Source of the DNA: Haliangium sp.
GTDB lineage: Bacteria; Myxococcota_A; Polyangia; Haliangiales; Haliangiaceae
Strand: one strand, 5' to 3'
DNA: 64,000 nucleotides
NCBI RefSeq assembly: GCF_050304635.1
Contig: NZ_JBNLDX010000012.1
The notes under the pieces are model-generated. The model was not told the origin of the DNA and made no database searches. It was given only the letters and a program-made list of their open reading frames with translations. The translations under genes and the position numbers were made by a program. Of this stretch, positions 6,036 through 10,301 are shown in pieces; position 1 is the first letter of the stretch; each line of letters opens with the position of its first letter.

Positions 6036-8966
6036 ATGCAATTGCGAAAAAGTTGGCTCGTTCTGCTCGTGCTCCTCGCGAGCGCCGGCGTCGCCCACGC
6101 ACAAGGGCGAACCATCACCGGAACTCTCCAAGAAGCAGAGACTCGAGAACCGGTCATCGGCGCCACGATCCTCGTGGTCGGCACGGATCTGGCCGCTATC
6201 AGCGAAGCCGACGGCTCCTTCACCATCGAAGGCGCGCCTGCGGGCGAGGTCACCCTGGCGGTCTCGGCGGTGACGTACGAGACCCAGGATGTCGTGGTCG
6301 CCGCCGGGCAGAGCCAGGTGGCCGTGTCGATGGCCCTGGCTCGCTCCGAGGAGATCCTCATCGTCGGCCGCGCGCCGCAGATCACCCGCCAGAACCTGGC
6401 CAACGGCGCCTCGGTGGTCAAGGGCGATGAGATGACCGAAGTCTCGTCCCAGACCGTCGAGAGCGCGCTCCAGGGCCGCATCTCGGGCGCCAACATCCAG
6501 TCCAACTCGGGCGCGCCCGGCGGTGGCATCCAGATCAAGCTGCGCGGGGTATCGACGATCAACGGCGAGGCCTCGCCGCTGTTCGTCATCGACGGCGTGA
6601 TCGTGTCCAACGAAGCCATCCCCTCGGGCATCTCGGCCGTGACCGAGTCGGCCGGCGGCTCCAACACGGCCGTCCAGGACAACCCGGTCAACCGCATCGC
6701 CGACCTCAACCCCAACGACATCGAGAGCATCGAGGTGCTCAAGGGGCCGGCCGCGGCCGCCCTGTACGGCTCCAAGGCCACCAACGGGGTCATCATCATC
6801 ACCACCAAGCGGGGGCGGCCCGGCGAGGTCCGGGTCAACGTGATGCAGCGCTTCGGCACCTACCAGCTCTCCAACACCTTGGGCTCGCGCCAGTTCAGCC
6901 GGCAGGAGGCCGAAGACGTGTTCGGCGCCGCCGGCGCCGCCGAGTGGGACGCCAACAACGGCCGGGTGTTCAACCAAGAGGAGCTCCTGGCCGGCGAGAC
7001 CGGGCTGGCCTCGGAGACCTCGGTCAGCCTCAGCGGCGGCACCGACAACACCAACTACTACACCTCGGTGATGGCCCGCCGAGACCCCGGCATCATCCCC
7101 AACACCGGCTACGAGAAGCAGTCGATGCGGCTCAACCTCGGCCACAGCCTGGGCAAGAAGCTCCGGGTCGCGGCCACCGCCAACCTGGTCCACTCCGACT
7201 CCTCCCGCAGCGTCACCAACAACGACAACGCCAGCATCTCGCACTACATGGTGCTGCCGTTCACGCCCAGCTTCTGGAACCCCAACCAGCGGGCTGACGG
7301 CACCTATCCGTCCAACCCCTTCATCGGCAGCGGCAACAACCCGCTCGAGACCGCCAACCTGATGAGCGACAGCGAGGAGACCTGGCGTCTGCTCGGCTCG
7401 GCCTCGGCCAACTACCGCGCCTGGGAGACCGACACCCAGTCGGTCAACTTCGGCGCCAACTTCGGCGTCGATCGCTACCAGCAGCAGAACGCGCTCCTGT
7501 TCCCGAGCTCGCTCAACTTCACCGCCCCGGACGGGGCCAAGGGCATCGCCCTCGACGCCACCGCCGAGGTCCGCAACTTCAACCTCGGCCTCAACGGGGT
7601 CTACAACCTGCGCCCGGCGTCGGGTGCCTTCCAGGCCGCGACCACGGTCGGGTTCCAGTACGAGGATCGCGACATCAGCACCCTGTACGTCGAGGGTCGC
7701 AACCTGAACGCCGGCGTCACCAACGTGCACGCCGCCGCCAGCGTGTCGGCCCTCGAGACCCGCCAGCGGGTGCGTGACGCGGGTGTGCACCTGCAGCAGG
7801 AGGTGCGCATGCTTCAGGATCGCCTCACCCTGCTGGGCGCGGTGCTGGGCGAGCGCTCGAGCGCCAACGGCGACACCGACCAGATCTTCTTCTACCCCAA
7901 GGCCGCCGCGACCTACTCGGTCCCGGTGCCCGAGACCTTCCCGGTCGAGCTCGTGCGTGTCCGCGTGGCCTACGGCGAGACCGGCAACAAGCCCCCCTTC
8001 GACTTCAAGTACACCGCGGCCAACGGCGACCAGAACGTCGAGGGCAACGCCGGTATCGTCACCGCCGGTATCGCCGGCGATGATGGCATCGAGCCCGAGC
8101 GTCAGCGCGAGATCGAGGGTGGCTTCGACGTGGTCGGCTTCGACGGCCGCGCGGTGTTCGAGTTCACCCTGTACCGGCGCAAGATCGACGGCCTCATCCT
8201 CGAGAGCGCGCCCGCGCCCTCGACCGGCTACACGGTCGAGCGCATCAACGGCGGCGCCCTGCGCAACCGCGGCGTCGAGCTGATGGCGCAGTACACGCCC
8301 ATCCGCCAGGAGGGCGGTCTCACCTGGCTGTCGCGGGCCGTGTTCTCGCTCAACCGCAGCCGCATCACCGACCTGGACGTCCCGGCGTTCTTCGTCGGCG
8401 GCTTCGGCGTCGGCCTGGGCGCGTTCCGGGTCGAGCGCAACCACTCGGCGACCCAGATCGTGGGCAACATCAACGACGGCGCCACCGTGGGCGTGGTCGG
8501 TGACGCCGAGCCCGACTTCCGCATGTCGTTCGTGAACAACGTCAGCTTCGGCGACTTCGAGCTGACCTCTCTGGTCGATTGGCAGCAGGGCAGCGAGGTC
8601 ATCAACCTGACCAAGTTCCTGTACGACGCCGGCAGCAACAGCGCCGACTGGAACAGCGGCGGCGAGGAGCGCTTCATGCGCTGGGCCGCCGGGAACACCG
8701 AGGAGTACGTCGAGGACGCCAGCTTCGTGAAGCTGCGCGAGATCTCGGTGGCGTACAACCTGCCCAAGGGGCTGGTGAGCCAGATCGGTCCCATGGACAG
8801 CGCGCGCGTGAGCGTGAGCGGCCGCAACCTGTTCACCTGGACCCCGTACACGGGTCTGGACCCCGAGGTGAGCAACTTCGGCGCTCAGACCATCGCTCGC
8901 AACATCGACGTGGCGCCCTTCCCGCCCAGTCGTAGCTTCTGGTTCTCCATCGAAGCCGGCTTCTAG
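6036..8966 (+). CDS. SusC/RagA-family TonB-dependent outer-membrane receptor
   Basis: 976 aa. Signal peptide (LASAGVAHAQ), N-terminal carboxypeptidase-regulatory-like domain (GTDLAAISEADGSFTIEGAPAGEVTLAVSAVTYETQ), TonB box/plug (EEILIVGRA...IESIEVLKGPAAAALYGSKATNGVIIITTKRG), long beta-barrel and C-terminal aromatic residue (...IEAGF). Confidence 0.9.
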   Translation: MQLRKSWLVLLVLLASAGVAHAQGRTITGTLQEAETREPVIGATILVVGTDLAAISEADGSFTIEGAPAGEVTLAVSAVTYETQDVVVAAGQSQVAVSMALARSEEILIVGRAPQITRQNLANGASVVKGDEMTEVSSQTVESALQGRISGANIQSNSGAPGGGIQIKLRGVSTINGEASPLFVIDGVIVSNEAIPSGISAVTESAGGSNTAVQDNPVNRIADLNPNDIESIEVLKGPAAAALYGSKATNGVIIITTKRGRPGEVRVNVMQRFGTYQLSNTLGSRQFSRQEAEDVFGAAGAAEWDANNGRVFNQEELLAGETGLASETSVSLSGGTDNTNYYTSVMARRDPGIIPNTGYEKQSMRLNLGHSLGKKLRVAATANLVHSDSSRSVTNNDNASISHYMVLPFTPSFWNPNQRADGTYPSNPFIGSGNNPLETANLMSDSEETWRLLGSASANYRAWETDTQSVNFGANFGVDRYQQQNALLFPSSLNFTAPDGAKGIALDATAEVRNFNLGLNGVYNLRPASGAFQAATTVGFQYEDRDISTLYVEGRNLNAGVTNVHAAASVSALETRQRVRDAGVHLQQEVRMLQDRLTLLGAVLGERSSANGDTDQIFFYPKAAATYSVPVPETFPVELVRVRVAYGETGNKPPFDFKYTAANGDQNVEGNAGIVTAGIAGDDGIEPERQREIEGGFDVVGFDGRAVFEFTLYRRKIDGLILESAPAPSTGYTVERINGGALRNRGVELMAQYTPIRQEGGLTWLSRAVFSLNRSRITDLDVPAFFVGGFGVGLGAFRVERNHSATQIVGNINDGATVGVVGDAEPDFRMSFVNNVSFGDFELTSLVDWQQGSEVINLTKFLYDAGSNSADWNSGGEERFMRWAAGNTEEYVEDASFVKLREISVAYNLPKGLVSQIGPMDSARVSVSGRNLFTWTPYTGLDPEVSNFGAQTIARNIDVAPFPPSRSFWFSIEAGF

Positions 8967-8987
8967 GACCTGAGGAGGCTTATCATC

Positions 8988-10301
8988 ATGATTCGAAATA
9001 AACTCATCCTGCTCGCGGCGCTGTTGCCTCTGGTCGCATGTGACCTGGAGATCTCGGATCCCAACAACCCGGCCGAGGCCGACTTCGTCAACAACCCCAC
9101 GCCCGAGGTGGTCCTCGCCGGCACCACCGGCCTCATCATCGGCCACCGCGCCAACAAGGCAGAGTCCAACGGCTACATCAGCTTGCTGTCCGTGATCGGG
9201 CGCGAGGCCTATAACTTCGACGCGGCCGATCCTCGCTTCCAGGGCGATCTGATGGAGGGCAAGCTCGACCCGACCGCGGCGGCCTTCGGTGCCAACATCT
9301 GGGTCAACCCCTACGCCAACATCCACCTGGGCCTGCTGGTGCTCGACGCCGTCGGCAAGGTCAACTTCGGTGAGGACGAGCGCGAGGGCATTCGTGGATT
9401 CGCCAAGACCATGATGGCGCTCGACTACCTGGCCGTGATCGTCACCCGGGACGAGGCGGGCGCGGCCCTGGTGTCCAGCACCGACATCGATGACATCCCG
9501 CCGCTGGTGTCCAAGGACCAGATCTACGACCACATCGAGACCCTGCTCGACGAGGCCGAGACTCACCTGGCGAACGCCGGCGATGAGTTCTCCTTCTCGC
9601 TCAGCAGCGGCTTCACTGGTTTCAACACCCCCGCCGAGTTCATCAAGGTCAACCGCGCCATCAAGGCGCGGGTCGAGATCTACCGCGGCAAGTACGCTGA
9701 GGCGCTCACCTCCCTCGGCGAGAGCTTCATCACCGCCGATTCCGCCAACCCCCAGCTCAGGCTGGGTGTGTATCACTCCTATGGCACCGGCTCGGGTGAC
9801 ACCCAGAACGAGCTGGTGTCGGCGAACTTCTTCGTGCACCCCTCCGTGCGCGCCGAGGCCGAGGCCGGCGACACCCGCATCGACACCAAGATCAAGGATC
9901 TGGGCGCCGACGGTGCTCGCACCGTGGCCGATCTCACCTCTCAGGACGGGTTCCTGGTCTACCCGGACGTCACCAGCCCGGTGACCATCATCCGCAACGA
10001 GGATCTCATCCTGCTCCGGGCCGAGGCCAACTTCGAAGAGGGCAACCTCGACGAGGCCATCGCCGATGTCAACTTCGTGCGTGAGCACTCCGCCGGCCTG
10101 GCCCCGCGCGACGACCTGGACGCCGATAACTTCTTCGACGAGCTGGTCAAGCAGCGCCGCTACAGCCTGCTGTTCGAGGGCCACCGCTGGATCGACATGC
10201 GCCGCTGGGGTCTGCTCGGTCAGCTCCCCAACGATCGCCCCAACGACTCCGTGCCCTCGGCGCTGCCGATCCCGACCGCCGAGCTCGACGCTCGGCGCTA
10301 G
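8988..10301 (+). CDS. SusD/RagB-family nutrient-binding outer-membrane lipoprotein
   Basis: 437 aa. Lipoprotein signal LLPLVAC. Helical TPR-like composition. C-terminal SusD signature ...[22 protein letters not shown]. Sits 22 bp downstream of the SusC-like gene. Confidence 0.8.

Follow-up and report, generated by a model that had tools for sequence, protein, structure and literature searches.

A SusC/SusD-type pair in Haliangium sp. from a stand-alone clade of Myxococcota and Gemmatimonadota

A 64,000-nucleotide stretch of DNA from Haliangium sp. (assembly GCF_050304635.1, contig NZ_JBNLDX010000012.1), referred to here as the window, carries at positions 6036-10301 a two-gene outer-membrane uptake system of the SusC/SusD (SusCD) type. 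The pair is a member of a stand-alone clade without a polysaccharide utilisation locus (PUL), which is common to Myxococcota and Gemmatimonadota and, more distantly, Cytophagales. SusCD pairs are usually treated as a hallmark of Bacteroidota and as a metagenomic proxy for glycan use. Our best overall explanation is a SusCD-type importer of an orphan clade, with oligopeptides as the most likely cargo. We hold the architecture and the conserved clade with high confidence, and give the explanation as a whole an even chance of being right.

Both proteins are already correctly named in public annotation, and they belong to a well-understood transporter family. Each is 100% identical to an NCBI-annotated Haliangium sp. 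entry, the first named 'SusC/RagA family TonB-linked outer membrane protein' and the second (WP_428261868.1) 'RagB/SusD family nutrient uptake outer membrane protein'. SusCD pairs have also been reported earlier in metagenome-assembled genomes (MAGs) of Gemmatimonadota (bioRxiv 10.1101/2022.08.12.503676). For these two reasons, the surprise at finding such a pair here, implied by an earlier annotation made from the sequence alone (the initial annotation), was overstated.

The transporter and its lipoprotein partner

The features of the two genes are as follows.

6036..8966, + strand: susC-like gene, SusC/RagA-family TonB-dependent outer-membrane transporter, 976 aa (TIGR04056, AlphaFold2 [AF2], Foldseek)
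6036..6101, + strand: Sec signal peptide of the SusC-like protein, MQLRKSWLVLLVLLASAGVAHA then QG (translation; cleavage site placed from the AHA-Q motif)
6111..6344, + strand: N-terminal extension (NTE), a carboxypeptidase-regulatory-like beta-sandwich, residues ~26-103 (PF13715, 54 bits; PF13620, 42 bits)
6348..6365, + strand: putative TonB box EEILIV, residues 105-110, directly 3' of the NTE (by position relative to Bt1763)
6393..6791, + strand: Plug domain, residues 120-252 (PF07715, 63 bits)
6717-6809, + strand: SusC/RagA signature motif, residues 228-258 (TIGR04057)
6822..8963, + strand: beta-barrel, residues ~263-976, with the C-terminal beta-signal ...SIEAGF (long antiparallel strands in the AF2 model)
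8972..8978, + strand: Shine-Dalgarno sequence GAGGAGG, 9 nt 5' of the susD start (sequence)
8988..10301, + strand: susD-like gene, compact SusD/RagB-family lipoprotein (lid), 437 aa (PF07980, AF2, Foldseek)
9030..9041, + strand: lipobox L-V-A-C18, with an acidic motif following the acylated Cys (translation, alignment of relatives)
9975..10220, + strand: conserved SusD_RagB core, residues 330-411, including IRNE[DE]L[IL]LLRAEA (Pfam match region)

The open reading frame (ORF) at 6036-8966 is a SusC/RagA TonB-dependent transporter (TBDT) whose fold is nearer to SusC barrels than to classical TBDTs. The protein scored 456.3 bits with the full-length SusC/RagA hidden Markov model (HMM) TIGR04056 (curated cut-off 368.25) and 60.2 bits with the signature model TIGR04057 (cut-off 46.2, residues 228-258), while other TonB-dependent receptor models scored well under their own cut-offs. 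The carboxypeptidase-regulatory-like N-terminus and plug that the initial annotation had read from the sequence were both recovered, with the CarbopepD_reg_2 match at residues 27-103. Residues 25-99 of the NTE are all-beta in the AF2 model, which was made with database proteins only and has a predicted local distance difference test (pLDDT) score of 77 and a predicted TM-score (pTM) of 0.74. In a Foldseek search of the PDB, the best 22 matches were all SusC-type barrels (E 1e-52 to 1e-36), and the first siderophore TBDTs appeared only after a gap, at E 1e-22. BT2264 of Bacteroides thetaiotaomicron is the closest solved SusC both by structure (E 2.7e-52, query TM-score [TMq] 0.73, 22% identity) and by sequence (161 bits).

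In position and sequence character, EEILIV matches VDEVVV of Bt1763, a TonB box shown by experiment to be required, since levan uptake is lost when it is deleted (PMC7782687). The residues G111-R112-A113 right after it are nearly invariant or invariant among relatives, as is, without exception in the alignment, the terminal Phe of the protein. Judging from these sequence features, the transporter is probably TonB-dependent.

The ORF at 8988-10301 is, by its predicted structure, a compact SusD/RagB lipoprotein. At the sequence level it scored 54.4 bits with PF07980 (SusD_RagB; cut-off 23.1), and the SusD hallmark quoted in the initial annotation lies within the match. Pfam covers only the C-terminal 82 residues (330-411) and detected no N-terminal SusD-like domain, as might be expected if the lipoprotein stood beside an ordinary TonB-dependent receptor by chance. 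The initial annotation had set the SusD fold beforehand as the test on which its reading should stand or fall. The AF2 model, built from 32 relatives, has a pLDDT of 89 and a pTM of 0.89, and its 8 long helices fit an arrangement in 4 TPR-like pairs. All 50 of its top 50 Foldseek matches in the PDB were SusD/RagB structures (probability 1.00, TMq 0.59-0.69), including RagB (5cx8/6sln), SusD itself, the levan SusD and ButD. Since the model confidently shows the SusD fold over the full length and its top matches are SusD/RagB structures without exception, and since the pairing is kept in every relative examined, a chance neighbourhood is next to inconceivable.

All 32 relatives conserve Cys18, and 110 of 120 have a lipobox. 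The consensus after the lipid-bearing Cys reads C-D-L-D-[VI]-P-D-L-N-N-P; this acidic motif (CDLDxPD) resembles the likewise acidic export signals of Bacteroidota lipoproteins, which we take as a lead only. Invariant columns in the core comprise R336-N337-E338, E397-G398-H399, W401, D403 and R405-R406. By analogy with characterised SusCD systems, the lid is probably surface-exposed and is likely to form a complex with the SusC-like barrel.

Relatives and descent

Full-length orthologues in the same tight pair are found in H. ochraceum (Hoch_6126/6127), M. xanthus DK1622 (ABF87024.1 and its neighbour) and Gemmatimonadota MAGs. Hoch_6126/6127 share 66-67% (SusC) and 50% (SusD) identity with the pair in the window, the pairs of Myxococcus, Corallococcus, Pyxidicoccus, Archangium, Melittangium and Hyalangium 51-53% and 47-50%, and those of Gemmatimonadota 44-47% and 42-49%. 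The closest Bacteroidota (Cyclobacteriaceae and Roseivirgaceae of the Cytophagales) reach 33% in SusC and 34% in SusD. Pedobacter SusCs are 19-22% identical, and a Pedobacter SusD is 30% identical over a partial match. Orthologous pairs span two myxobacterial classes as well as Gemmatimonadota, with identities within Myxococcota of 47-69%. An exhaustive HMMER scan (E <= 1e-30) returned 294 clusters at 50% identity. Of the options offered by the initial annotation, a lineage in which SusCD is under-appreciated is the one that fits best.

The clade is uniform in its basic layout. Nearly all full-length SusD family members are compact (~430-490 aa), and SusC stood next to SusD in every related locus inspected, which was the sole universal feature across 14 first-round loci. 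The spacer between the two genes is 21 nt in the window and mostly -4 to +15 nt in 37 related metagenomic loci. The Myxococcota pairs differ in their flanks, which hold tsaE, kinase and dsbA-like genes in the Haliangium type and leuS-lptE in the Myxococcaceae type. No paralogue of the clade from H. ochraceum or M. xanthus was present among the top 120 matches, and the window holds no second SusCD pair.

In a rough neighbour-joining tree (969 columns of SusC, 100 bootstraps, Pedobacter copies as root), the Myxococcota, Gemmatimonadota and Cytophagales relatives fell into one clade with 100% support. Within it, the Haliangium-type sequences grouped together (94-100%), as did those of the Myxococcaceae/Archangiaceae type (96%), and the Gemmatimonadota sequences branched as a grade below Myxococcota with weak support (48-71%). 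The order kinase - tsaE - ... - susC - susD - ... - dsbA-like/sigma factor is common to Haliangium-type contigs, and its first part, kinase-tsaE-...-susC, is found in loci L011 and L016.

The pair has a GC content of 0.66-0.68 against 0.70-0.74 in its flanks. This deficit of 3-6 points, together with the fact that SusCD is best known from Bacteroidota, could be read as a sign of recent horizontal acquisition from that phylum. However, GC at third codon positions (GC3) is 0.94 and 0.90 in the two genes, like their neighbours, and the deficit sits at codon position 1, which points to amino-acid composition rather than foreign origin. The host-like composition noted in the initial annotation was thus borne out, though overall GC is slightly lower. 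Moreover, no mobile-element genes were seen flanking the pair, synteny is shared with Haliangium-type contigs, and the best Bacteroidota relatives fall well below the Myxococcota in identity. Recent transfer was rejected on codon usage, synteny and identity gradients, and we give it hardly any weight. Because codon usage is host-like, the tree mirrors myxobacterial taxonomy and synteny is kept, the observations indicate that the pair is old and has been passed on vertically. An ancient transfer between a lineage of the FCB superphylum and a myxobacterial ancestor is possible: the old lateral acquisition suggested by the initial annotation is compatible with the rough tree, but the branching on which it depends is weakly supported.

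Literature searches on SusCD in Myxococcota returned incidental co-mentions only, many of the 'susc' matches probably being 'susceptible'. No paper discussing the myxobacterial pairs was found there, nor was an MXAN locus tag or phenotype for the M. xanthus DK1622 orthologue ABF87024.1.

Two variations were seen among relatives. By BLAST clusters and Pfam counts, loci L053, L087, L089 and L098 (and L082) carry a second SusC-like and SusD-like pair in tandem with the first; multi-pair loci thus occur in these high-GC, presumably non-Bacteroidota organisms. Many SusC relatives in the series P0155-P0232, at ~50% identity, have a length of 1,150-1,190 aa and additional N-terminal domains (PF15976, PF09430, PF17802 and others).

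Gene neighbourhoods

The absence of flanking glycoside hydrolases (GHs) noted in the initial annotation holds for the entire window, which contains none. No GH, polysaccharide lyase (PL) or carbohydrate-binding module (CBM) enzyme stands beside the pair, and no carbohydrate-active enzyme (CAZyme) lies within ~15 kb on either side of it in the window, so that the pair does not form part of a PUL. The sole esterase (PF00756) is the ORF at 47909-49345. The pairs of the Cytophagales relatives also stand amid housekeeping genes, and ~50 related loci showed scattered single CAZymes only. The nearest carbohydrate-related gene in the window, ~15 kb off at 25158-28067 (- strand), encodes a 969-aa protein with RCC1-like beta-propeller repeats and a C-terminal CBM96.

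Peptidase genes recur next to the pairs. They are adjacent in 6 of the 14 first-round loci: S8 peptidases carrying PKD domains directly upstream in L011 and L016, an S9 peptidase immediately downstream in the Gemmatimonadota locus L013, and M28 peptidases immediately downstream in L014, L015 and L017. L014 also has an M4 peptidase, then exbB-exbD-tonB, three genes off. By position, peptidases occupied 6 of 28 adjacent sites against 3 of 114 non-adjacent ones (Fisher p = 0.002, or 0.03 after dereplication). A second, independent sample of 80 metagenomic loci was dereplicated to 38 and annotated with crude gene calls of our own. In the 73 genes one or two places from the pair (+/-1 and +/-2), the commonest families were Peptidase_M20/M20_dimer and Peptidase_M28, and no GH family was among the 25 listed for these genes. 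Among 77 distal genes, Pfam found fewer than 2 members each of M20 and M28, and BLAST found M20/M28 homologues only at +1 or +2 and none distally.

From their sequences, the adjacent peptidases look extracytoplasmic. The M28 enzymes are LapA-like, the S9 enzyme has a weak match to Porphyromonas Dpp5, and the S8 peptidase has a region matching a myxosortase-dependent M36 peptidase model. In the Gemmatimonadota locus L002, an OppA-type SBP_bac_5 protein and a Glu/Leu/Phe/Val dehydrogenase are encoded upstream. Two of the M28-associated loci share a further gene: a divergent ORF immediately upstream of susC in L015 (3418-4677, - strand) and L017 (3387-4673, - strand) encodes a 419- to 428-aa protein without a Pfam match.

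Proposed mechanism and cargo

The pair can be compared with three groups of characterised systems. The RagAB oligopeptide importer of P. gingivalis (PDB 6SLI/6SLN) likewise consists of a SusC-type barrel and a compact TPR lipoprotein lid, and is likewise a stand-alone two-gene system without CAZymes, in a proteolytic host. RagAB chains are among the top fold matches for both proteins (RagB 5cx8/6sln; RagA 6sln/6slj), although identity is only 13-18%, the host belongs to another phylum, and RagB has ~480 aa against 437 here. The BT2261-2264 complex of B. thetaiotaomicron (PDB 5FQ6-8), which includes BT2264, held an oligopeptide ligand in the crystal (PMC7782687). It has four components, with two extra lipoproteins whose counterparts are not conserved here. 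Canonical PUL-encoded pairs (SusCD of B. thetaiotaomicron; levan Bt1762-63) share the gene order, the succession of NTE, TonB box, plug and barrel, and the lipoprotein lid. Unlike them, the pair in the window has no linked GH, surface glycan-binding protein, hybrid two-component system or extracytoplasmic function (ECF)/anti-sigma regulator; its lid is ~100 residues shorter than the glycan-binding Bt1762 or SusD, and its host is not a member of Bacteroidota.

Every sequence and fold element needed by the 'pedal-bin' cycle, as outlined for Bt1762-63 and RagAB (PMC7782687; PMC11817032), is present in the pair. The SusC-like protein would act as a 22-strand TonB-dependent barrel with plug, NTE and TonB box, and the SusD-like protein as its lipid-anchored, TPR-type lid. 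The lid would hinge open, capture an oligomeric nutrient and shut over the barrel. Contact of the ligand with the plug would expose the TonB box, and TonB would then remove or remodel the plug, letting the ligand enter the periplasm. Oligopeptides set free by peptidases that are secreted or reside in the envelope may be the cargo, as for the RagAB system of Porphyromonas.

We tentatively favour oligopeptides on the analogy with RagAB, and rate this assignment of cargo, taken alone, a little short of even. The two SusC-type transporters whose crystals contained oligopeptide ligands are BT2264 and RagA (PMC7782687), and the recurrent peptidase neighbours are in keeping with such a cargo. Solved structures were also tried as a guide to the substrate and rejected: peptide- and glycan-associated SusCDs rank almost equally by sequence and by fold, so structure matches do not discriminate between substrates. 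Myxobacteria such as M. xanthus feed mainly on peptides and amino acids. With no PUL and with peptidases recurring nearby, repurposing from glycan import, as suggested in the initial annotation, is plausible; the lack of a PUL is observed, while the change of role is something we infer.

Several points weigh against an oligopeptide importer. In the Foldseek results for the SusD model, RagB and glycan-binding SusDs are not separable, all matching at ~1e-10. An adjacent peptidase is lacking in H. ochraceum, the Myxococcus-type loci (leuS-lptE), L001, L018, L020 and the majority of metagenomic loci. In the window, an M1 peptidase stands three genes off on the opposite strand. Peptidases are common in these genomes, and the gene calling behind the neighbour census was crude. 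Single CAZymes do occur in related loci, namely a CE2_N/GDSL esterase in L014, a GH43 three genes off in L020 and a CBM48/alpha-amylase in L007. Finally, the literature searched yielded no experimental work on any member of this clade.

A more specific version of the oligopeptide reading, which we consider conceivable but rather doubtful, is that the clade is a dedicated 'protein utilisation' importer acquired once by a myxobacterial ancestor from a lineage of the FCB superphylum. Oligopeptides would then be released by neighbouring secreted M28, M20, S8 or S9 peptidases in the course of predatory or proteolytic nutrition.

One rival, to which we assign roughly one chance in four, is that the pair imports glycans in the classical way and that the genes for the degradative enzymes lie in other parts of the genome; it would then take up prey cell-wall or extracellular polysaccharide oligosaccharides or starch-like glucans. 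Most characterised SusCD pairs carry glycans, and the top fold matches include the laminarin-binding SusD-like 6gcz and the levan and dextran systems. The sporadic CAZyme-type neighbours listed above fit this explanation too, as do secreted lectin/CBM proteins in the window (CBM96 at 25158-28067, ricin-B at 32576-34540), though these are far off. Yet there is no GH or PL next to the pair, and no GH family among the 25 proximal families listed for the 38 loci. The CBM48/amylase, which is that of H. ochraceum, may be an intracellular glycogen enzyme, and the closest Bacteroidota relatives are likewise without CAZyme neighbours.

A non-nutritional or unusual role is unlikely. The pair might export a protein, import a metal complex or cofactor, or act as a receptor for toxins or for the cargo of outer-membrane exchange. 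Such a role draws some support from Oar (MXAN_1450) of M. xanthus, an NTE-carrying TBDT of the same phylum that acts in secretion (PopC), and in which a carboxypeptidase-regulatory-like NTE is likewise followed by a TonB box and plug (PMC6434023). The SusCD-type pair ButCD is a toxin receptor (PDB 8ypt, among the matches), and the housekeeping context (tsaE, leuS-lptE, dsbA-like, sigma factor) suggests a constitutive envelope function. However, Oar is a longer TBDT of the Oar subclass that falls outside the TIGR04056 SusCs and lacks a SusD partner, whereas the protein in the window is matched by both the SusC/RagA HMM and the signature model. The SusD lid, being invariant, speaks for a ligand that is captured from outside, and no riboswitch or Rfam element that might have indicated cofactor uptake was found upstream.

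Implications

The CAZyme-free SusCD clade is an established part of both Myxococcota and Gemmatimonadota. Since the clade is conserved without CAZymes, scoring susCD as 'glycan import' in soil or sediment MAGs may mislabel it, and susCD counts from non-Bacteroidota MAGs should not be taken as glycan uptake. If the cargo is indeed peptides, the pair would be a candidate route by which prey-derived peptides cross the outer membrane of myxobacteria. Should the dedicated protein-utilisation importer prove correct, it would be the first functional SusCD system beyond Bacteroidota, and would imply that Myxococcota possess machinery placing the lipoprotein lid on the cell surface. The pair also raises the question of how a non-Bacteroidota diderm would display a SusD lipoprotein on its surface.

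Operon layout and flanking genes

Three further features bear on the layout of the locus.

10327..10360, + strand: strong intrinsic-terminator-like hairpin with a 10-bp stem, 8 G-C pairs and a T-rich tail, also placed at 10327-10350 (sequence)
5245..5736, + strand: tsaE (housekeeping), immediately upstream of the pair (PF02367, 117 bits)
1842..3848, - strand: M1-family zinc metallopeptidase lipoprotein with LASAC16 lipobox and HEVGH motif (PF01433, 67 bits; translation)

The hairpin begins 26 nt 3' of the susD stop and, together with the 21-nt spacer and its ribosome-binding site, marks the pair as a self-contained bicistronic operon. The downstream aminotransferase gene (ATG, 10420-11694) was rejected as an operon member, as the hairpin intervenes and the gene is not at this position in relatives.

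Upstream, an apparent 985-bp gap before susC is mostly the unlisted tsaE gene, and the ~300 nt separating tsaE from susC would serve as the promoter region. A sigma-70 consensus scan upstream of susC found no promoter. A riboswitch or other regulatory RNA 5' of susC was also considered and rejected, with Rfam giving nothing at E <= 1 in 4900-6200; at gathering score it found no element over the entire window. A perfect 37-nt direct repeat (5719-5755 and 5789-5825, spaced by 70 nt) has both copies in the ~300-nt region upstream of susC, the first of them overlapping the tsaE stop codon. The repeat was reported by find_repeats but not by Tandem Repeats Finder (TRF); it might have a regulatory function, or it might stem from a small tandem duplication or from an artefact of assembly.

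The genes before the pair encode a GFO/IDH/MocA-family oxidoreductase, an unknown protein, the M1 metallopeptidase, a Ser/Thr kinase and TsaE; those after it encode the aminotransferase, an unknown protein and a DsbA-like lipoprotein. The M1 metallopeptidase is a possible functional partner of the pair. The DsbA-like gene (13251-14864, + strand) encodes a double thioredoxin/DsbA-like protein with counterparts in L011 (11401-13002) and L012 (5893-7494). Its product scored 174 bits, below the cut-off of 190, with the Rcas_1661-family thioredoxin-like (seleno)lipoprotein model. In the closest relatives this gene lies directly 3' of susD, whereas here the aminotransferase and the unknown gene intervene.

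Other observations in the window

The high-GC, kinase-rich setting described in the initial annotation was confirmed, with a window GC of ~0.70 and Ser/Thr-kinase domains in six ORFs, both in line with a myxobacterial host. One of these six (15265-20487, + strand) encodes a 1,740-aa signalling protein that combines the Ser/Thr kinase with an AAA_16 STAND ATPase, TPR, GAF and a histidine-kinase ATPase domain. The ORF at 40865-42271 (- strand) encodes a 468-aa protein with a eukaryote-type PITM1-3 beta-sandwich and LNS2 (lipin/Nir2-like) domains. A 701-aa ORF at 59357-61462 (+ strand) carries major-vault-protein domains (MVP_shoulder, 100 bits; Vault_3, 30 bits) and is a eukaryote-like vault-protein homologue within a bacterium. 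Positions 62001-64000 have a GC content of 0.575 against ~0.70 elsewhere, and may be foreign or island DNA at the edge of the window; this end region includes an HD-domain ORF (62504-63898; HD and HD_assoc_2) and an ORF at 61422-62648 without a Pfam match.

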